This document shows positions 2,976 to 36,385 of a DNA stretch of 36,385 nucleotides, piece by piece; positions within the stretch are counted from its first letter, which is position 1, and the number at the start of each line of letters is the position of its first letter. A model generated the notes under the pieces. It did not search any database, was not told where the DNA came from, and was given only the letters and a program-made list of their open reading frames with translations. Position numbers and translations under genes: made by a program. Location: IMG/VR virus record IMGVR_UViG_2698536369_000022; one strand, given 5' to 3'. The DNA comes from a virus. Its lineage: Duplodnaviria > Heunggongvirae > Uroviricota > Caudoviricetes.

Positions 2976-4160
2976 ATGAGTGAAACTCGTTTTCATGGTG
3001 CCCGTGTTACGGAAAATACCGACCTGGTAACAGCGATTAACGATGTTGATTCCAGCGTTATCGGTATCGTGGCAACGGCGGATGATGCGGACGCGAAGTT
3101 GTTCCCGCTGAACAAGCCCACACTGCTGACCCGCGTCAATGACGTGCTGGGAAAATGCGGAACAACGGGGACGCTTTATCGTGCGCTTAAGGCCATCGCA
3201 GACCAGGTGAGCACAAAGGTGATCGTCGTTCGCGTGGCTGAACACAAAGAAGAAGACGAAAAGACGCAGGATCAACTGGTTATCGGTGGTTCTGAGGATG
3301 ACGGCAGCTATACGGGGATGTATGCGCTGCTTGTTGCAGAGCAGGATGAAAGCATCGGATACCGTCCGCGTATTCTGGCCGCGCCGGAGCTGGACACGGA
3401 GGCGGTGACAAAATCCCTGTGCGTGATTGCGGGTAAACTGCGCGCATTTGTGTATGCCTCATGTCACGGCTGTAACACGATGGCTGAAGCGATTACCTAC
3501 CGCCAGAAATTCAACGAACGTGAAGTGATGCTCTTGTGGCCGGACTTCATCGCCTACAACCCGAAAAGTGGCGAAAACGAAACGTTCCCCGCGCCTGCCT
3601 ATGCGTGCGGCCTTCGTGCGTACATTGACCATGAGCAGGGCTGGCACAAATCGCTGTCCAACGTTCCGGTTAAAAATGTGCTGGGGATGTCCAGGCATGT
3701 GTTCTGGTCGTTACAGGCCGAAGACAGCGATGCCAACAGCCTCAACAACAAAGAAATCACGACCATTATTCGTCGCAACGGGTTCCGCTTCTGGGGCAAC
3801 CGCACACCGGAAACGAACGCCTACATCTTTGAGGTGTATACCCGAACCGCACAGGTGCTGGCTGATTCAATTGCGGAAGCGCAGTTTGAAACCATCGACA
3901 GTCCACTGACGCCTGCGAACGTGAAGGATGTTATCAGTGCCATCAGGGCAAAACTGGATTCACTGGTTACTGCCGGGAAACTGATTGGCGCGGAGTGCTG
4001 GTATGACGTGGTGGATAACAGCACCACGGATTTACGTCAGGGGCGTGTGCGTATTCGCTACAAATATACGCCCGTTCCGCCACTGGAAGACATGGAGCTT
4101 TACCAGACGTTTACTGATGAATACTTTGAACCCGCATTTGCGGTGCTGGGAGGTGCCTGA
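2976..4160 (+). CDS. FI: Contractile tail sheath protein FI
   Basis: 394 aa; motifs AIADQ, KLRAF.Y, DQEQGWHK.LSNV, RRNGFRFWGNRT, YTRTAQV, YTPVPPLE match P2 FI from memory. Confidence 0.9.
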   Translation: MSETRFHGARVTENTDLVTAINDVDSSVIGIVATADDADAKLFPLNKPTLLTRVNDVLGKCGTTGTLYRALKAIADQVSTKVIVVRVAEHKEEDEKTQDQLVIGGSEDDGSYTGMYALLVAEQDESIGYRPRILAAPELDTEAVTKSLCVIAGKLRAFVYASCHGCNTMAEAITYRQKFNEREVMLLWPDFIAYNPKSGENETFPAPAYACGLRAYIDHEQGWHKSLSNVPVKNVLGMSRHVFWSLQAEDSDANSLNNKEITTIIRRNGFRFWGNRTPETNAYIFEVYTRTAQVLADSIAEAQFETIDSPLTPANVKDVISAIRAKLDSLVTAGKLIGAECWYDVVDNSTTDLRQGRVRIRYKYTPVPPLEDMELYQTFTDEYFEPAFAVLGGA

Positions 4161-16079: not shown

Positions 16080-16317
16080 GTCTGGCCTCTCCGTCCTGAT
16101 TGCGTTGCTGATTTTCCGCGCGGAGTTGTGCCAGCACCTGCTGCATATCCTGTACCCCGGTGCTGATGATATTCAGGGTGTCGACGGTACTTTTCAGGGT
16201 GCTGGCCTGCGCTTCGTTTCTGGCGTTCTCCCGGCCCAGCGACCACGACAGACGCATGGATTCTCCCCATGCGGCAATCAGAAGGAAAGCGACGCCCAGC
16301 GTGGGCCAGAGCTTCAT
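15910..16317 (-). CDS. lysB: Inner-membrane spanin (LysB/Rz-like)
   Basis: From internal Met MKLWPTLGVAFLLIAAWGE (N-terminal TM) followed by a coiled-coil-like region; the track ORF upstream extension overlaps the endolysin gene and is unlikely to be coding. Confidence 0.7.
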   Translation of the reverse strand: MKLWPTLGVAFLLIAAWGESMRLSWSLGRENARNEAQASTLKSTVDTLNIISTGVQDMQQVLAQLRAENQQRNQDGEARREQLRNDIAKDECAHALPDARFTDRLRRHAERATASAVSPAYPADADHTGNAPPLP

Positions 16318-16706
16318 GCCGGATAGGCTCCGTGTGGTAACTGAAAATGCGGTCCGTCTTTCAGGGTCTTCCAGTCGCCGCCCCATTCCACCGGAATATT
16401 CAGCTCCCGGCTGGCCTGTCTGAATGCTGCTGCGATTTTTTCGTACAGCGGCCATTCCCATGACACCTGGCTGCCGATATAAGCCACAACATCCACGGCA
16501 TGTCCCGTAAGGTGGCGGCTGTTCATGGTCTGGCTCTTACCTGTGGCCACAAGTTGCTTCTGGCGGTAACGGCTGCGCAACCCTTCGGTGATACCAAAAT
16601 CCACTTCCGAAATTTCCAGTGCCCGTCGGGTCACTTTCACCAGATCAGGATTTACGCCCTGCAAATTCTTTTCGCTCCGGCTGCTGAATTTAAATGTGTT
16701 GCTCAT
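16314..16706 (-). CDS. Endolysin, peptidase M15-type (L-alanyl-D-glutamate peptidase)
   Basis: 130 aa with DFGITEGLRS..RQKQLVATGKSQTMNSRHLTGHAVDVVAY...WEWPLYEKIAAAFRQASRELNIPVEWGGDWKTLKDGPHFQL, matching the M15 endolysin family as I recall it (His/Asp zinc ligands). Confidence 0.8.
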   Translation of the reverse strand: MSNTFKFSSRSEKNLQGVNPDLVKVTRRALEISEVDFGITEGLRSRYRQKQLVATGKSQTMNSRHLTGHAVDVVAYIGSQVSWEWPLYEKIAAAFRQASRELNIPVEWGGDWKTLKDGPHFQLPHGAYPA

Positions 16707-17026
16707 TCGTCCTTCTCCTTCACCCTGCGATTAAAGGCCGCAATAACCTTGTCGCGTGCTTTCTCTGCACCCATAAAACCGATTGATGCGCCGATAAACG
16801 TCACGGCATCTTCAGGAAAACCGAAGAAGCGCAACGACCCGGCCACGGCCATGGCAAGAACGCCGCACGCCAGCGATCCCGTTACGGTCTGAACCAGAGT
16901 TCGTCCGTCATAAAGACTCATCAGCGCGGAAATGCTGACCGCCGCGCCTACTGCATACACCGTTGGCAGGTGGTCAAAGAGCCACGCAATAACCTGCTCT
17001 GTGATCCCTGTTTGAATGGTGCTCAC
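16703..17026 (-). CDS. Y: Holin (P2 Y position)
   Basis: GTG start preceded by GGGGGAG gives about 107 aa with hydrophobic helices (VIAWLFDHLPTVYAVGAAVSISALM; GSLACGVLAMAVAGSL) and charged C-terminus; the track ORF's Arg/Gly-rich extension is unlikely to be real. Confidence 0.7.
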   Translation of the reverse strand: MSTIQTGITEQVIAWLFDHLPTVYAVGAAVSISALMSLYDGRTLVQTVTGSLACGVLAMAVAGSLRFFGFPEDAVTFIGASIGFMGAEKARDKVIAAFNRRVKEKDE

Positions 17027-27166: not shown

Positions 27167-30007
27167 TCATATATCGCGGCGCGTTTTTTGCTCATTTACG
27201 GGATTTGTGAATCCCGTTTCTGTCTGTTTTTTGTTTCCACTGGTCAGGCCACCCCGCAGCAGGTCTGCTTTGCGGCGGGCGCGTTCAGTGGTTTCACTGA
27301 TTCTCTGTGCGTGCTCTGCGTCGCGGATGGCGCGCAGCATGTCAGAAAGCACGGTAACGGGTGTTTTCATGGTGTTCTGGTCTTGCTGAAGTGTGGATGC
27401 CAGGCGTGCGGCGGCTTCGGGGTCTGATGCCCCCAGCTGTTCCAGATAGCTGGCGATCGGGTTATGGCGGATCTCCGTGCTGCTTACGCCGTGGTTACGG
27501 CTCAGGCGCTGCCAGAGCTGCGTGATCCGTCTGTCCGGTCGGGTATCCGGTTTGCGTACAATTTCAAATTCCTGCGGTGCAATGATGCTGCCGTCAACGT
27601 ACAGGCTGCCGCCCCGTAACAGGTGCTGCATCTGCTGTTCACCGATATGCAGGCCGAGAGATTCGGCAGATTCCCGCCATTCTTTAGCGAGTAATTCGTG
27701 GTTATCAGGCAAAGGCCGCTGCTGTTTGCGGCTCTGTGTCCAGCTCTGCATTTCATCACTGCTGTTTTTTGCCTGTTTGTCACGAAGCGAACGCATCAGC
27801 GCCCGGCGTTCGTGCCGTTTCAGTGAGCGCATCCATTCGTTCACTTCAACGCCGTCAGGGAGCTGCGGCCACGGTGCTGGCCGTTCTTCCGGCTGTTCTG
27901 TCCCGTTGTTGTCCGTTTCCTGTACACGGGGACAGTTATTGCCACGAGTCCAAGGGGCGGCAGGGCCGCCCTGAAGGTCAAAACCATTTTCGCGGGCGCT
28001 GTCTTCCGCTTCCGGTTTGCGTCTTACCAGCTTCCAGTTATCCGGATGCGTGCATACGCGGGAAGACTCCCCAATGAGCGGCGACCAGATCCCGTAAATC
28101 TGTACGCTCTGTTCACCGTAATCGTTCAGCTCATCTGCGAGGTCGTAGGCGGTGCGAATCAGGTAGTCTTTGCGTGGAACAAGTACGCCACCCTGTTTCT
28201 CAATGTAGGTGGCAAAACATCCGGCATCAGCGGCAGCGAGTACCGCGTCCATTGCGTCATCCTTCAGCCGTTGCGGGCCTTCCGGGTTGCGTGCCATCTG
28301 GCTGGCAAGGCGGCGCAGTTCACGCCACACCTGACGGGAGGGGATACCAAAGAACTGGAACTGGCGGACCCGGTGAAGGCGCGCCCAGCCGATGGCGCGT
28401 TCCACGCTCTCGGCCATTGATTTTCCGGTTTCGTGGTCAACGCGTGGCTTGCCCGTTTTCGGGTCGATGCCATCTACGGCGCGGCTGTCCAGGTTTTTTC
28501 CGATGTAGGTCGCGATATAGCTGGTTGGTGTGCCTTTTGAGCCGTCGACATACTCCGCCTTAAAGCGCGGAGTAATATCATTGCCCAGCTCGTGGCGGTC
28601 TTCCTGAATGGCAATATCGCGGGTGATGACCACGATGCTGTCGATTTCTTCCGGATGAGCAAAGACCATCATATGCCAGTGCACGGTGCCGTCATGGTGA
28701 GGCTCCACCGTGCGGATGCCATACCAGCGAAGACCGTCGCGGCTCAGTTTTTTGCGGACCGCCGCAAAAAACGTGTTAACCAGGTAATCGCTGGAGTCGC
28801 GCATGGTGGCCCCGTTCCATTTGGGGTTCGGATGACCGTTCTCCGTTGTTGCGTGGTATTTTGACGGGCAGGTGACAGTCAGAAACACCGCTCTGTCGCC
28901 ACGGGCTTCGGCCAGAAGTTCCAGTCCTTTCATGGTGGCCATCATTTCTGCCTTACGGTGAACCGGGTTACTTACTCCCGCGTAATACACTGTCTCGAGA
29001 TCAATCGTGAACCCGTCTTCATTTTCCAGCATGAAACTTTTCAGGAAATCGCGTGTTTTCTCGCGCTGTGCGCGAAACTCGCTTAACGCGTCCTGGCTCA
29101 GATAGGGTGATGTTTTTCTGGAAACCAGACAGGCGGCGCGGCGTTGTTCTTCTCTCCACTCGCAACGTAACAGCCACAGTTTGCGTTTCCACCAGTCCGC
29201 ACAGGTCAGGCGAAGGATTGCGCCCGGCAGCAGTTCTGTGTCCGGTTCGTTCCTCCGGTCTTTGTCTGTTGTCAGTGCGTCATAATGTGGCGGCATGGCG
29301 TGCAGGTGTAACGCCATTCGGGCCAGCATCTGATACGCCTTCAGCGCCACTTCCATGGTCAGCTCACCATCGGTCGCGCCAAAGCCATCGCAGAGTGTCT
29401 CGAAGGTGCTGCTGAACATTGCCGCCGTCATGGTGGCCAGTGTCTGTATCTGGTGTTTGTTGAGCTGCGGCAGGTACAGCAAATCGTCCAGGCGTTCGCG
29501 CCCGGCAAGGGAGCGATAACCCGGTGTCAGCCAGCGTCCGTCAGTGCGATCCAGACGTTCGAATATTTTGCGCAGGGTTCCGCGTGCATAGCGTTCAGCC
29601 TGCCAGCTCTTTTTGCCTTTCTGGCGATCGGCTTCCTGTTTTTTGCGCAGGAAAGAGAGGTGGCAGCTCAGTGGTTCACGCAGATAAACAGGTAGTGCCT
29701 TTAGTGTGGCAAAGGCACGGGCTACTGGGTCTTGTTCTGTTGCCCGGCGCTTACTGATGATGCTCTGTGCCAGCTTTTCACGCTGTCCGGCTTCCTCAAG
29801 GGATGCCATGAGTTTTTTACCCATGGCGGATTGTGCGAAAAAGGCTTCTTCCTTCGCTTCCTGTTCTTCCTGTGCCCTTTTGTCTGCCTCAAGGTAGTAA
29901 CGGATGGCGCGTTGCAGGTCGGTTTCAGTTTCCTGCCTGTGCTCCGTAAATCTGGCCGGATCAATGGCTGGCCGTGGTTCATTCCAGCTCCATGCAAACT
30001 CATTCAT
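27167..30007 (-). CDS. A: Replication initiation protein A (rolling-circle endonuclease, GPA family)
   Basis: About 946 aa from the internal MNEFAWSW Met (ATGA overlap with the upstream ORF); contains HDGTVHWHMMVF HUH-like motif; position in the early operon as P2 A. Confidence 0.8.
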   Translation of the reverse strand: MNEFAWSWNEPRPAIDPARFTEHRQETETDLQRAIRYYLEADKRAQEEQEAKEEAFFAQSAMGKKLMASLEEAGQREKLAQSIISKRRATEQDPVARAFATLKALPVYLREPLSCHLSFLRKKQEADRQKGKKSWQAERYARGTLRKIFERLDRTDGRWLTPGYRSLAGRERLDDLLYLPQLNKHQIQTLATMTAAMFSSTFETLCDGFGATDGELTMEVALKAYQMLARMALHLHAMPPHYDALTTDKDRRNEPDTELLPGAILRLTCADWWKRKLWLLRCEWREEQRRAACLVSRKTSPYLSQDALSEFRAQREKTRDFLKSFMLENEDGFTIDLETVYYAGVSNPVHRKAEMMATMKGLELLAEARGDRAVFLTVTCPSKYHATTENGHPNPKWNGATMRDSSDYLVNTFFAAVRKKLSRDGLRWYGIRTVEPHHDGTVHWHMMVFAHPEEIDSIVVITRDIAIQEDRHELGNDITPRFKAEYVDGSKGTPTSYIATYIGKNLDSRAVDGIDPKTGKPRVDHETGKSMAESVERAIGWARLHRVRQFQFFGIPSRQVWRELRRLASQMARNPEGPQRLKDDAMDAVLAAADAGCFATYIEKQGGVLVPRKDYLIRTAYDLADELNDYGEQSVQIYGIWSPLIGESSRVCTHPDNWKLVRRKPEAEDSARENGFDLQGGPAAPWTRGNNCPRVQETDNNGTEQPEERPAPWPQLPDGVEVNEWMRSLKRHERRALMRSLRDKQAKNSSDEMQSWTQSRKQQRPLPDNHELLAKEWRESAESLGLHIGEQQMQHLLRGGSLYVDGSIIAPQEFEIVRKPDTRPDRRITQLWQRLSRNHGVSSTEIRHNPIASYLEQLGASDPEAAARLASTLQQDQNTMKTPVTVLSDMLRAIRDAEHAQRISETTERARRKADLLRGGLTSGNKKQTETGFTNPVNEQKTRRDI
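27195..27220. repeat. Second copy of the palindrome (ACGGGATT-TGTG-AATCCCGT) inside the 3' end of gene A
   Basis: Near-identical arms about 73 bp from the first copy; encodes TGFTNPV of the A protein C-terminus. Confidence 0.6.
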
Positions 30008-30465: not shown

Positions 30466-30693
30466 TTAATGGAGTTTGTTTTGCTGCTGGATGAGCCGTT
30501 GAAGTTCGCGCAGATCATCCGCCAGATAGCTGAAAACAGAGGCGGAATAGGTGTTTGATAGCGCGTGGCTGCGCTCATGCAGCATATTGATGTGCATGAT
30601 TTGCGCGACGCGTGATGCGCGGAAAAGCCTGCGGTTGATTTCAGTCTGGATGTGACGACGCGCAGCGTATGCGCGCTGTTTGCGGTTTGCCAT
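30466..30693 (-). CDS. Hypothetical small basic protein (75 aa)
   Basis: ORF with helical, Arg-rich character; no recognised family. Confidence 0.4.
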   Translation of the reverse strand: MANRKQRAYAARRHIQTEINRRLFRASRVAQIMHINMLHERSHALSNTYSASVFSYLADDLRELQRLIQQQNKLH

Positions 30694-30865
30694 GGTGTGG
30701 CCTCTGCGGTAGTAAGTTGTAAAAACTCACCATCCAGAGGTGGAAAACTCGGGGTGGTGAGACGTACAGGGTTTCCACAACCGGCTACCACAGAACCCGG
30801 CCCGACCGAAGTCGGCCCCATACGCCCCACCATAATTCGTGTGCGAAAAAGACGTGGCGATACGG

Positions 30866-30893
30866 TACGCACAAAAAAACCGCTGGCGCGGTT
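30866..30893 (-). terminator. Rho-independent terminator for minus-strand transcription
   Basis: Minus-strand reading AACCGC-GCCA-GCGGTT followed by TTTTTTTG. Confidence 0.5.
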
Positions 30894-31136
30894 GTGCGCT
30901 GTGATAGTCAGCGGGGTGGAAATCCCGGCACCCGTTTTATGAGGTGCAGCGGAAATGTAACCTGACTGATTGCGGCATGGCAAGCGGTTTTTTTGTGTGT
31001 GCATATACAGTTTTACTCCGTTTAATCCGGTTTTTTTTGCCTTCAACCGGAAAAGAAGGGTGTGTTACGCTTGAAGCACCCGCTGTTCCGTCAAAAACAA
31101 GGCGGGTGCTTTGTTCAACACACGTAAGGAAAATAA

Positions 31137-32534: not shown

Positions 32535-32945
32535 CTATGCGTTAAATACGGTGCGCTGTGCGTCATCAATGAATGCGACTTGAGAGCGCTCAATCAGGCG
32601 GAGATTTGTCAGAATCTCTGATTCCCTTATGGGGTGAGGAGTGATCAGGTATTTATCCTGTAATCCGGCGATAATGGTGTATCGCTGTAGCTCCGAGCCA
32701 ATTGTGTAAATAAGGCATCCGGTGTTAGACAAATCCAGTCCGGTGACTGGTTGAGTTTTGAAAAGCGTAAGTTCCGCACCCTGTTCTTCGATGATTTTGG
32801 CGGCTTCTGCCGTGACTTTTGCGACTATCATCGTGTGGGTAGCGACGTCTATATGATCATTTGCTACGGCTTTTTTCGCTACTTCGCTTTCCATCTTTGA
32901 AATTTCTTTCAGTGCTCTGATGATGCCTTCTTCTTTTGCATGCAT
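32535..32945 (-). CDS. Hypothetical protein (136 aa)
   Basis: Protein-like ORF in the early operon; no recognised motif. Confidence 0.5.
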   Translation of the reverse strand: MHAKEEGIIRALKEISKMESEVAKKAVANDHIDVATHTMIVAKVTAEAAKIIEEQGAELTLFKTQPVTGLDLSNTGCLIYTIGSELQRYTIIAGLQDKYLITPHPIRESEILTNLRLIERSQVAFIDDAQRTVFNA

Positions 32946-33038
32946 TTTTGTATCTCCGTTATTTGCGTGTGCGAATACCTCCGCTAATACGGATGGTTTT
33001 CACGTTTTCTTATTTAATCTGGTGTTTTGTTTGTGCTG

Positions 33039-33152
33039 TTATTCGTCAGGGAAATAACGCTCAATCTTTTTTACTGAATGAATAATTCGCATAATCCCGA
33101 TTGCGCAGGCCACCGAAATAATCAGAACAATCCATGATATAAATATACTCAT
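33039..33152 (-). CDS. Possible 37-aa single-TM peptide (MSIFISWIVLIISVACAIGIMRIIHSVKKIERYFPDE)
   Basis: ATG overlaps the stop of the upstream 80-aa gene (ATGA); strongly hydrophobic core then basic tail; not in the ORF track (too short); hand-translated. Confidence 0.35.
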   Translation of the reverse strand: MSIFISWIVLIISVACAIGIMRIIHSVKKIERYFPDE

Positions 33153-33391
33153 ACGATATTCCCCAGTTTATATGGCTCAATGCGCTCTCCGCATTCTGCG
33201 GCGCAGACGAGTTCGGAAAGCTCGTTAATTGCATCCAAATCGTCAGCATAAAAGGCTACGTCATAAAGACTTCTGATTGCTCTTGCTAATGAGTCATGGG
33301 CTGCGTGTTCGGCGTGGGGGCCTGATGTGTTTAAGCGAAAATGAAAACGCTCAAGTGCTTTGTTAATGAGAGTTTTATATTCTTTGTCCAT
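33149..33391 (-). CDS. Hypothetical protein (80 aa)
   Basis: Protein-like small ORF in the early operon. Confidence 0.45.
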   Translation of the reverse strand: MDKEYKTLINKALERFHFRLNTSGPHAEHAAHDSLARAIRSLYDVAFYADDLDAINELSELVCAAECGERIEPYKLGNIV

Positions 33392-33669: not shown

Positions 33670-34155
33670 TTAATTCCCTCGTGGATGCTGAAAACTACGG
33701 CCTGCAATTAAGCGGTCAACGGTGCGCAGTGCTTCGTACAATGTGAAATCCTGCCCGAACTGATTGTCGCCGCAGCTCAATGCAAAAATGCGGTTTCCGG
33801 TAAACGGATTGCGTGGGCATCTGTGAACCACGATTCCAGCTTTCTCAATCAGCCAGGTGTGTTCGCCGATTTGTTTTACAGCGTGGCCATCCGGCGTTGC
33901 GTGTGTTTCGCTCAGGCTGTAGCGAGAGTTGCTACGTGATGCACTGGTAGCGAAACGGTTAGCATGGCGTTCCGCACCGTTGCGGAAGCGCTGCTGTGAA
34001 GAATTGCGCTGTTGCTTCATGTCAAAAACTCCGTACCTGTTTACTTCCCCGGCATAACGCCCATTTTCAAAGTAATTGCGGCGAAATCCCGTGTTATGAG
34101 GTTCGCTGTTTCGCTGTTGCTTATTCATTTTTCGAGCCTCTACCCAATGAGCCAA
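33670..34155 (-). CDS. Hypothetical protein (161 aa)
   Basis: ORF with Arg/Asn-rich N-terminal half and compact C-terminal region; no recognised family. Confidence 0.5.
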   Translation of the reverse strand: MAHWVEARKMNKQQRNSEPHNTGFRRNYFENGRYAGEVNRYGVFDMKQQRNSSQQRFRNGAERHANRFATSASRSNSRYSLSETHATPDGHAVKQIGEHTWLIEKAGIVVHRCPRNPFTGNRIFALSCGDNQFGQDFTLYEALRTVDRLIAGRSFQHPRGN

Positions 34156-34356: not shown

Positions 34357-34878
34357 TTAGTTGCCTTCGCTGCTTTTGAGTCGTTCCAGCTTTGAGCTTC
34401 TACCCATATAAACCCGTTTTCCGTTAACGGTCTGGCAGTCTTCTTTGTCGGCTGGAGAGAACTTTCTTTTCTGGCGGTCATACGTCCAGTAACTTTTCCA
34501 GTTGTGCCATTCTGGGGGCTCGTACTCTGGTAGCTCATCAGCCAACTTGTCCCACTCTTTGGCGTTAAACCACCATACTCCGTCTGAGTTTTCATCTTCT
34601 GGGTTTGTGCGCGTTTTGTGTCCCGGCATTTGACCGCGATGAATGGCTACGCGCAGTGCAGATTTTGTTAGGCCAATATATGCCGCACCTTTTTCCAGAG
34701 AGCAAAGCCCGGCGATCGGACCATCCAGCCGTAAAGTCGCTCCTTTTTTGTAGGAACGCTTTTTCTTGTTTTCTTCGTGTTCGTCGTCGTTGGCGGCATC
34801 AATGGATCCGCTGAGTGTGTCGCTTTCCTGAAGTGGTTGGTGGTCAGATAACTCTTTATCGGCAATGAAGTCCCGCAT
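34357..34878 (-). CDS. Cox/Apl-like excisionase-type HTH regulator, first gene of the early operon
   Basis: Divergent from the C repressor across a 103-bp gap; HTH ..GAAYIGLTKSALRVAIHRGQMPG.. followed by ..GVWWFNAKEWDKL.. resembles AlpA/Xis-type winged helices; longer (173 aa) than P2 Cox with an acidic N-terminal extension. Confidence 0.55.
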   Translation of the reverse strand: MRDFIADKELSDHQPLQESDTLSGSIDAANDDEHEENKKKRSYKKGATLRLDGPIAGLCSLEKGAAYIGLTKSALRVAIHRGQMPGHKTRTNPEDENSDGVWWFNAKEWDKLADELPEYEPPEWHNWKSYWTYDRQKRKFSPADKEDCQTVNGKRVYMGRSSKLERLKSSEGN

Positions 34879-34981
34879 TTGTTATCCTCTTGCGTTGGTG
34901 CGCTTGTTGCGCCTTGTGATGGTTTGTTTTGGTTTGTTTTCTTCACCCTGTGGTGAAGAGCGAAAAGAGGATACTCATCGT
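34879..34981. promoter_or_regulatory. Lysis-lysogeny switch region (divergent Pe/Pc-type promoters and operators)
   Basis: 103-bp gap between the Cox-like and C genes containing direct repeats GGTTTGTTTT x2 and palindrome TTCACC-CTGT-GGTGAA. Confidence 0.5.
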
Positions 34982-35323
34982 ATGGTGAACATGTCAAGAG
35001 ATTACGCCAAAAAACTAAAGGCGATCAGAAATGCGGAAAAACTTACACAATCTCAGTTTTCGCAAGTAACGGGGGTTTCTGTAGGGACTATAGGAAATTA
35101 TGAGTCTGGATATAAACCTGCGCGAATTGAGGTTGTAGAAAAAGTAATCCAGGTCGAGCGATTCGAAAAATACACTATGTGGATACTTCACGACAAAACA
35201 TTTCCCGCTGCCGGGCAGGTTGCTCCGGCTCTCTCTCTTGATGGCTCTATTCAGTCGGAGGGCGATCAGGTTTCAATCGGCATTACCCAAAAATCGCCCC
35301 GATCAGGCCGCAATGTTGGCTGA
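34982..35323 (+). CDS. C: Immunity repressor C (XRE-type HTH)
   Basis: ..LTQSQFSQVTGVSVGTIGNYESGYKP...RFEKYTMWILHDKTFPAAGQVAPALS resembles P2 C (..LSRQQLADLTGVPYGTLSYYESGRSTP...QFTKYTLWFMTNQIAPESGQIAPALA); start at the internal ATG after AAGAGGA; the track ORF N-terminal extension is unlikely. Confidence 0.8.
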   Translation: MVNMSRDYAKKLKAIRNAEKLTQSQFSQVTGVSVGTIGNYESGYKPARIEVVEKVIQVERFEKYTMWILHDKTFPAAGQVAPALSLDGSIQSEGDQVSIGITQKSPRSGRNVG

Positions 35324-35392: not shown

Positions 35393-36385
35393 ATGTCGAT
35401 TAAGCAACTCAAAGACGGACGTTATCAGGTTGATGTAAGGCCTCAGGGTGCGGAAGGAAAGCGGATTCGAAAAATCTTCACCCTGAAATCAAAGGCTCAG
35501 GAGTTTGAGAAGTATGTGTTACAGAACTTCCATGACAAGCCATGGCAGGCTAAGCCAGCTGATCAGCGGCGATTATCAGAGTTACTTGATGCGTGGTGGA
35601 TGCTTGACGGGCGTAATCAGGCTTACGGGGATAGCTACAGGGTCAGGTTAGGGAAGGTTATTCGTGAAATGGGGGATCCTCGTGCCAGTCAGATGACGCG
35701 AAAATTTATGCTCGAGTATCGGTCAGAGAAATTACAGGCCGGATTAATGCCGTCCAGTATTAATCGTGACTTATGCGTTCTGTCTACCATGTTCACGGTG
35801 CTGATTGAAGCTGAGGTCTTTCACAACGTGAACCCTGTGCGCGGTATACGCAAACTGAAAGTTCAGAACACGGAAATGGCCTTTCTTTCTGATGATGAGA
35901 TTGAACGGCTTCTTGAGCGACTGGAAGGGGATGCGCGTCGTGTTGCCATTCTGTGCCTTTCTACTGGTGCCCGATGGAGTGAAGCATCGGAACTACGTGG
36001 AGAACATATCGTTGGCAACCGGGTGACGTTTTTTAACACCAAAAACGGAAAATCCCGCTCGGTTCCTGTGGCGGATTCGGTCGTGCCTCTGATTAAAACC
36101 CGTCGAACGGGATTGTTGTATCAGGTTGATTATTTGAAGTTCCGGGAGATTCTTCAGGAGGTGAAACCGGATTTGCCGAAGGGGCAGGCTACGCATGTCA
36201 TGCGTCATACATTTGCCACGCACTTTATGATGAATGGCGGAAATATTGTTACGTTGCAACGAATCCTGGGGCACGCAACGATTCAGCAAACAATGACGTA
36301 CGCTCATTTTTCGCCGGACTTCTTACAGGACGCGATCAACTTTAATCCGCTGGCTGAAAGTGTCCATAAACTGTCCATCGATTAG
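35393..36385 (+). CDS. int: Tyrosine integrase (P2-type)
   Basis: GGAGGGG RBS then MSIKQLKDGRYQV..; C-terminal catalytic region ..HVMRHTFATHFMMNGGNIVTLQRILGHATIQQTMTYAHF with the R..H..R..Y signature; stop is the last codon of the window. Confidence 0.85.
   Translation: MSIKQLKDGRYQVDVRPQGAEGKRIRKIFTLKSKAQEFEKYVLQNFHDKPWQAKPADQRRLSELLDAWWMLDGRNQAYGDSYRVRLGKVIREMGDPRASQMTRKFMLEYRSEKLQAGLMPSSINRDLCVLSTMFTVLIEAEVFHNVNPVRGIRKLKVQNTEMAFLSDDEIERLLERLEGDARRVAILCLSTGARWSEASELRGEHIVGNRVTFFNTKNGKSRSVPVADSVVPLIKTRRTGLLYQVDYLKFREILQEVKPDLPKGQATHVMRHTFATHFMMNGGNIVTLQRILGHATIQQTMTYAHFSPDFLQDAINFNPLAESVHKLSID

Follow-up and report, generated by a model that had tools for sequence, protein, structure and literature searches.

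The window analysed here, by which we mean the whole stretch of 36,385 nucleotides, is a P88-type prophage (genus Xuanwuvirus, family Peduoviridae, P2-like), about 95-96% identical over its structural genes to PhiR44_2, Shae_phiSM and P88, and also to many E. coli prophages. Its gene layout, obtained by mapping the proteins of P88 onto the window, is that of the early lytic (cox-to-A) operon of P2 and 186, and after cox the minus strand carries in order DUF4761, an 84-aa ORF, DUF4754, a gene for a short peptide with which this study is concerned, and several small ORFs. The landmarks of the prophage are as follows:

35393-36358, plus strand: integrase (mapped from P88)
35012-35320, plus strand: C repressor (mapped from P88)
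34968..34997, minus strand: promoter-like site TTGACA-18-TATCCT upstream of cox (consensus match only)
about 34417-34782, minus strand: cox (mapped from P88)
33149..33391, minus strand: DUF4754 gene, 80 aa, upstream partner of the peptide gene (PF15946, E 4e-48)
30469-30693, minus strand: derepression protein (mapped from P88)
27170-30001, minus strand: replication protein A (mapped from P88)
16706-17026: holin (mapped from P88)
16317-16706: endolysin (mapped from P88)

The promoter-like site corresponds in position to Pe of P2 and pR of 186, and is likely, from its match to the consensus, to be the early promoter that would transcribe the peptide gene. A sequence-only reading of this DNA had placed the peptide inside an early operon, and the mapping confirms this, the operon being the cox-to-A operon of a P2-like prophage. 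Two other features of the same region were observed. The 161-aa, TTG-started ORF at 33670-34155 (minus strand) is over-extended, the DUF4761 domain beginning at residue 57 and DUF4761 orthologues being annotated at 111-117 aa. About 2.2 kb downstream of the peptide gene, in the same operon orientation, adjoining matches at Rfam gathering level to C4 antisense RNA (RF01695, 78.8 bits; 30750-30837, minus strand) and isrK (RF01394, 64.7 bits; 30873-30947, minus strand) lie just 5' of the derepression-protein gene.

The peptide gene and its immediate surroundings, all on the minus strand, comprise:

33161..33164, minus strand: GGGG Shine-Dalgarno-like run, 8 nt 5' of the ATG, within the last DUF4754 codons
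33149..33152, minus strand: ATGA start/stop overlap with the DUF4754 gene, read from the sequence and kept in 85/85 loci
33039..33152, minus strand: 37-aa ORF with stop TAA at 33039-33041, orthologue of phage P88 gp07
33090..33146, minus strand: predicted transmembrane segment, codons 3-21, IFISWIVLIISVACAIGIM (hydropathy, AlphaFold2)
33042..33089, minus strand: amphipathic charged tail, codons 22-37, RIIHSVKKIERYFPDE, predicted to be cytoplasmic (hydrophobic moment, conservation)
33061..33249, minus strand: overlapping 62-aa ORF in another frame, a chance ORF that is not preserved
32966..33001, minus strand: conserved non-coding element within the 93-nt spacer that follows the peptide gene, kept across loci

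Re-translation of 33039..33152 on the minus strand, DNA that begins ATGAGTATATTT and ends GACGAATAA, gives MSIFISWIVLIISVACAIGIMRIIHSVKKIERYFPDE, 37 aa followed by TAA. The earlier hand translation and its coordinates were an exact match, and the frame, which that reading feared might have been miscounted, is correct. The peptide ATG (33152-33150) and the DUF4754 TGA (33151-33149) have three bases in common, forming a 4-nt ATGA; the reported overlap of the start with the preceding stop is therefore real, the upstream gene being the 80-aa DUF4754 ORF, and the sequence layout expected for the proposed translational coupling is present. At codon 3, a change of ATGAGTATA to ATGAGTTAA would produce a stop in the 37-aa ORF while leaving DUF4754 intact. 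Gene positions and sequence show the ATGA overlap in the distant loci L086-L091, L093, L094 and L096 as well. The GGGG run would pair with the anti-Shine-Dalgarno sequence with a duplex energy of -5.5 kcal/mol, among the lowest 5.5% of 17-mers in the neighbouring gene, and a purine- or G-rich motif of this kind stands 6-11 nt 5' of the ATG in every locus (-4.2 to -8.5 kcal/mol). It is retained although the DUF4754 C-termini that overlie it vary (KLGNIV, FTGVAA, YSQVAA, LIEGET, LIEELA and ELENAA).

A short hydrophobic ORF is unremarkable in itself, and the case therefore rests on comparison with relatives. Using the DUF4754 protein as query, we gathered 82 loci from viral and genome collections, which with three annotated records made 85; a scan of genome contigs with DUF4754 gave two loci. 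Homologous DNA is present in all 85 loci at 84-94% identity, and the frame and its ATGA overlap are kept in every one, so that the conservation which the sequence-only reading proposed to look for in related phages is complete. The frame is 37 codons long in 80 loci, 45 in four and 30 in one, and encodes 34 distinct peptides, among which the hydrophobic part differs by conservative I/L/V/M/A exchanges. Variable sites number 12, 11 and 20 at codon positions 1, 2 and 3, and the ratio of non-synonymous to synonymous polymorphism (pN/pS; pooled Nei-Gojobori, 85 loci) is 0.27-0.29 in the 37-aa frame (codon-bootstrap 95% CI 0.13-0.49), against 1.26 and 1.00 in the two alternative frames; the neighbouring DUF4754 gene gives 0.12. 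Both parts of the peptide are constrained, with values of 0.25 for codons 3-21 and 0.32 for codons 22-37.

The 62-aa ORF, which the sequence-only reading had judged the less plausible of the two, was rejected as a gene: its start codon and open frame are intact in 0/85 loci, ACG replaces ATG in 83/85, internal stops occur in most, and pN/pS in its frame is about 1.0. That relatives might preserve this frame instead had been named as grounds for abandoning the shorter one, and none does. T-rich frames often yield hydrophobic ORFs, and at 37 aa the frame is short, yet the idea that it arose by chance, and that the 62-aa ORF or nothing at all is the real feature, is already refuted by the 85/85 against 0/85 contrast and the pN/pS of 0.29, and we give it virtually no weight. 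As these comparative data exclude chance, the 37-aa ORF is, on the pattern of sequence divergence, a real protein-coding gene with a conserved frame under purifying selection, and we are highly confident that it is a translated gene for a membrane protein.

For residues 3-21 the mean Kyte-Doolittle hydropathy is 2.72 and the Wimley-White octanol value -11.4 kcal/mol, which no other product of the early operon approaches, and AlphaFold2, supplied with the family alignment, predicts one continuous helix over residues 2-33 (pLDDT 86). The tail, RIIHSVKKIERYF, is amphipathic (hydrophobic moment 2.0), and the family keeps its positions R/K22, I23, I24, K28, I30, E31 and F34. The hydrophobic stretch is preceded by no charged residue and followed by four K/R, one H and three D/E, a net charge of +1. 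Of the architecture first proposed, one transmembrane helix with a basic tail, the helix is thus upheld by prediction while the tail proves to be weakly basic. Because the charges follow the hydrophobic stretch and none precedes it, the positive-inside rule favours an N-terminus outside and a C-terminus inside; this orientation is probable, on that rule alone and with a tail whose net charge is just +1.

Conservation is unevenly distributed around the helix. Across 10-14 diverse members M1, W7, A17, G19, I24, K28 and I30 are invariant, and S6, L10, I23, E31 and F34 vary in at most one sequence. Column entropy over residues 3-34 has a helical periodicity peak near 105 degrees (permutation p about 0.009), calculated from 14 phylogenetically related sequences and hence modest evidence, since the sequences are akin to one another. 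The conserved stripe, S6-L10-S13-A17-I20-I24-K28-E31, runs through both the transmembrane segment and the tail, and positions 5, 9, 15/16, 25/26, 29 and 32/33 form a variable face opposite. Such one-sided conservation resembles a helix-helix interface and, to the modest degree that the periodicity allows, appears to exceed what bulk hydrophobicity would require.

To delimit the family, an alignment headed by a natural 45-aa allele was used in a profile search of 5.8 billion proteins, which returned 115 matches with E-values down to 5e-22, and 19 came from HMMER run exhaustively on 1.84 billion cluster representatives. All matches belong to one small family, the named ones nearly all Escherichia and no entry bearing any name but "hypothetical protein"; as the HMMER scan finds this family alone, there are no remote relatives to lean on. 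Its 41-aa forms include MIIFLSWLILIISVLMAIGIMRIIHTLKDIELFFTGDKRRK, MNILISWLILILAIICAVGTMRIINGIKTIESLFTGDKRHK and MSIFMSWVVLVLAIIFAIGIVKIITVIKAIEALFTGDKHHK, and on their contigs a DUF4754-type gene of 80/81 aa always precedes the peptide gene and overlaps it by the same 4 nt. In the distant loci the peptide is 49-68% identical to the window's and DUF4754 29-41%, so that the peptide is the better conserved of the two neighbours. In one locus (L091) the peptide is 89% identical, with the same YFPDE tail, and DUF4754 48%. The DUF4754 gene of this locus (732-974) is a mosaic, its first 14 residues matching the window's exactly, its middle distantly related and its C-terminal IEPY motif kept, which suggests, from the sequence, recombination within this small gene.

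DUF4754 itself is predicted to form a three-helix bundle (pLDDT 91.7; helices 3-23, 25-48 and 52-66), for which a fold search of PDB and BFVD gave generic helical-bundle noise alone (E >= 0.8). Across 92 loci the DUF4754-peptide pair is constant amid variable flanks: the gene 3' of the peptide falls into nine sequence clusters, representing at least seven real gene families, and the gene directly 5' of DUF4754 into three real families. In a narrow, recently diverged family this constant adjacency could reflect descent rather than function.

The peptide had been described as unannotated, which holds for the ORF track then available and is otherwise unsupported, because orthologues are widely annotated. 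P88 gp07 (YP_009113050.1, "membrane protein") is 89% identical over 37/37 residues and likewise follows DUF4754, overlapping it by the same 4 nt; full-length similarity and the place after DUF4754 between cox and A assign the window's peptide to its orthologous group. The label "putative membrane protein" is used for URC09552.1 and in phage vB_EcoM-569R5, and throughout RefSeq E. coli there are entries such as WP_033550184.1 ("hypothetical protein"). The window copy differs from P88 gp07 and the RefSeq orthologues in having the rarer tail YFPDE in place of FFTGE. We located the 114-nt sequence in 1336 of 5426 complete E. coli genomes, O157:H7, O104:H4 and ST131 strains among them, and an annotated CDS lies under it in 40/40 rows sampled across the ranking. 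We found no functional data in the literature for the peptide family, DUF4754, Xuanwuvirus early genes, P88 or CP-933T. Hence the ORF is already in databases and its product is an uncharacterised protein of a very narrow family; it is also of a well-known kind, the small single-pass phage membrane proteins, and would not surprise a specialist.

Allelic variation is concentrated in the tail, which indels in the A-run (GTAAAAAAG) or a T-run replace or truncate to give 30-, 34- and 45-aa forms, the 34-aa form occurring on 388 contigs. The protein may be able to do without its tail, or else decay may be under way in many of the prophage copies. Database proteins in which DUF4754 and the peptide appear fused were rejected as frameshifted assemblies and not natural fusions. 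The record of phage 503458 (NC_049341.1; L092), in which the peptide is not annotated, has single-base indels in both DUF4754 and the peptide gene that look like assembly error rather than biology, and was left out as a poor record. Another contig (NZ_JBQPOM010000071.1), labelled Vagococcus sp., has a DUF4754 89% identical to the window's and a homologous adjoining peptide region, with about 87% DNA identity across both; its assignment to a Gram-positive host is probably due to assembly contamination or mislabelling. In four of the distant loci (L086-L089, about 3139-3234) a second, uncalled hydrophobic ORF of 31 aa (MKNVKAILTIASVWLIFQVCALIWLALKIWE) lies 12 nt past the 41-aa peptide gene, and a related copy of it appears fused to the peptide in a 77-aa database entry (P0065).

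The A-run also bears on the reading of the frame. Codons 27-29, GTA AAA AAG, place an A_AAA_AAG heptamer (33066-33072, minus strand) in the phase of the dnaX frameshift site, and the -1 frame entered there ends ...KKD-stop, giving 30 aa. Read by eye, the sequence has neither a Shine-Dalgarno-like stimulator 5' of the heptamer nor an obvious hairpin 3' of it. Programmed -1 frameshifting was rejected as a conserved feature, the heptamer being absent from distant family members, and for the same reason it is probably a mutational hotspot. Beyond the gene, the conserved spacer element, GAAAACCATCCGTATTAGCGGAGGTATTCGCACACG, contains a hairpin (TCCG 32993-32990 with CGGA 32983-32980) whose variants keep their pairing (TCCGC/GCGGA, TCTGC/GCAGA and TCCGT/ACGGA). 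The element persists whatever the gene after it and can still be made out in the distant locus L090; it lacks a T-tail, and Rfam has no family that it matches. It may serve in regulation or processing, or mark a module boundary at which recombination takes place.

Comparison of the peptide with Pfam, PHROGs, NCBIfam, PADLOC and PDB sequences revealed no significant match, and at E<=1 Pfam returned PET117 (0.11) and DUF6007 (0.26) alone, neither a toxin family. The sequence-only reading had seen in a transmembrane helix with a tail the architecture of small membrane toxins and Kil-type peptides. A small peptide with a single transmembrane helix is indeed what a type I toxin looks like, and TisB, DinQ, Hok/Gef and Ldr (PMC8309996, PMC3567139) share with it a length below 50 aa, one transmembrane helix and an expected targeting to the inner membrane. 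They differ in being stand-alone genes with an antisense RNA, whereas a start/stop overlap ties the peptide gene to its neighbour within an operon; the peptide, moreover, matches none of the known toxin families in Pfam (Hok/Gef, Ldr, TisB, Ibs, Fst and others), and a specific face and its tail are conserved. An Rfam scan placed no RNA at the peptide locus. The sole promoter-like site on the opposite strand (32897-32924) lies inside a gene that is downstream-adjacent in 52/92 loci, and such sites occur at chance level. The hok/gef gene of P88, gp52, stands alone elsewhere in that phage, and no homologue of it occurs in the window. The toxin analogy therefore fails on family and on locus, and the architecture is no mark of a toxin, being equally that of non-toxic small regulatory membrane proteins (reviewed in PMC12648545). 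That class, which includes AcrZ, MgtS, MgrB and YohP (PMC12648545, PMC7549839), is functional and not a homologous family; the peptide resembles it in size (<50 aa) and single-pass architecture. Its members usually work by binding a partner, and the one-sided conservation of the peptide suggests the same, but the peptide is phage-encoded, lies in a lytic operon and has no homology to them.

The comparison with lambda Kil did not survive either. Both are short and come from an early phage operon, but Kil is a soluble helix-turn-helix peptide and FtsZ inhibitor that acts on FtsZ through ZipA (PMC3961180, PMC11762379) and so is no architectural match, whereas the peptide is predicted to be one continuous, largely transmembrane helix; a Kil-type assignment was rejected on its 19-residue transmembrane segment and the want of a Pfam match. 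A role as holin or antiholin was rejected because the locus is wrong, the peptide lying in the early operon and holin and endolysin 16 kb away. The nearest positional counterparts are fil and dhr of phage 186 (NC_001317 annotation), small, overlapping, non-essential genes that occupy the corresponding position in a P2-like early operon and are host-directed (cell division and replication). Fil and Dhr differ from the peptide in having no sequence similarity to it and no transmembrane segment, their best 19-residue Kyte-Doolittle values being 1.26 and 0.49 against 2.72.

We prefer to read the gene product as a small membrane protein of early lytic growth that is synthesised along with DUF4754 and has a specific binding partner; for this statement as a whole we estimate a probability of about 0.5. 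Ribosomes finishing DUF4754 would re-initiate at the overlapping ATG, so that synthesis of the peptide would accompany that of DUF4754. The 37-residue product would be a bitopic protein of the inner membrane, with a two-residue periplasmic N-terminus, a span formed by residues 3-21 and an amphipathic tail (22-34) on the cytoplasmic side. It would act by specific helix-helix binding, not by non-specific membrane damage, as is suggested by the conservation of one face and by a tail as constrained as the transmembrane segment; we hold this mechanism to be plausible while somewhat short of probable, resting as it does on patterns of residue conservation. The partner might be DUF4754, another member of the conserved DUF4761/DUF4754 block or an inner-membrane protein of the host, and the action would fall in early lytic development, where phage 186 has the host-directed fil and dhr. 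The L091 locus, with its conserved peptide and divergent DUF4754, argues against a tightly co-evolved complex of the two, and the 30-, 34- and 45-aa alleles, some of them common, point against an essential tail.

Several other explanations were weighed. The peptide might instead depolarise or permeabilise the inner membrane and so arrest host growth early in the lytic cycle. Its size and architecture are those of TisB, DinQ, Ldr and YohP-type peptides (PMC8309996, PMC3567139, PMC12719787), the gene lies where 186 has its host-directed genes, and under lysogenic repression of the operon a toxic product would be tolerable. Nevertheless, with no toxin-family match in Pfam at E<=1 or in PADLOC, no stand-alone locus, antisense RNA or conserved antisense promoter, the true hok/gef of P88 elsewhere and without a counterpart in the window, Kil not being a membrane peptide (PMC11762379), and position-specific conservation beyond the demands of hydrophobicity, we regard membrane toxicity as unlikely; the positive evidence for it is the architecture, which non-toxic regulators share (PMC12648545). 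A protein that binds a host DNA-entry component or a membrane-bound defence protein, and thereby protects the replicating phage by exclusion or anti-defence, would suit the accessory position, the variable flanks and the one-sided conservation expected of a binder. Other phages are known to block entry by means of small proteins of the inner membrane, for example T4 Imm and HK97 gp15. This is rather improbable, since the operon is a repressed lytic one and not a lysogenic-conversion locus like P2 tin/old, and there is no PADLOC match; it overlaps with the preferred explanation and does not exclude it.

It might also be that translation itself is what matters, as a coupling or leader ORF that prevents Rho polarity or controls the downstream spacer element. 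The strict conservation of the ATGA and the conserved hairpin-containing spacer are in keeping with this, as is an annotation note for 186 according to which A is apparently not translated unless ribosomes reach the end of orf84. A pure coupling role is nonetheless very unlikely because the amino-acid sequence is under selection: both halves have low pN/pS, in distant relatives the peptide has diverged less than its neighbour, and the hairpin lies about 50 nt past the stop, out of reach of the terminating ribosome. Lastly, residues 1-15 could be a signal peptide (SVA|C16) releasing a lipidated, periplasmic peptide of 22 residues, given that I-S-V-A-C16 loosely fits a lipobox. A lipoprotein was rejected, and we consider the chance negligible, as no K/R precedes the hydrophobic core, the hydrophobic stretch runs five residues beyond the Cys, and relatives have M, I or F in place of C16.

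The specific-partner reading can be carried further, to a dedicated early host-takeover module of P88-type phages formed by DUF4761, DUF4754 and the peptide, with the peptide as its membrane arm. The peptide would then tether DUF4754 to the inner membrane, or bind the host divisome, a transporter or a protease through its conserved face. We offer this as speculation and think it doubtful; if true, it would be a phage counterpart of AcrZ/MgtS-type regulators, present in about a quarter of sequenced E. coli.

For annotation, the consequence is that the 37-aa frame should be called and the 62-aa ORF dropped. Phages encode many small membrane proteins, of which hardly any has been characterised, and the merits of this one are its clean conservation, its defined early operon, its possible three-gene module and its occurrence in roughly one complete E. 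coli genome in four. Were it merely a toxin, or dispensable, it would be one more hypothetical phage gene; were it to have a specific host membrane target, it would provide a probe of that target and an example of host takeover by a phage microprotein.
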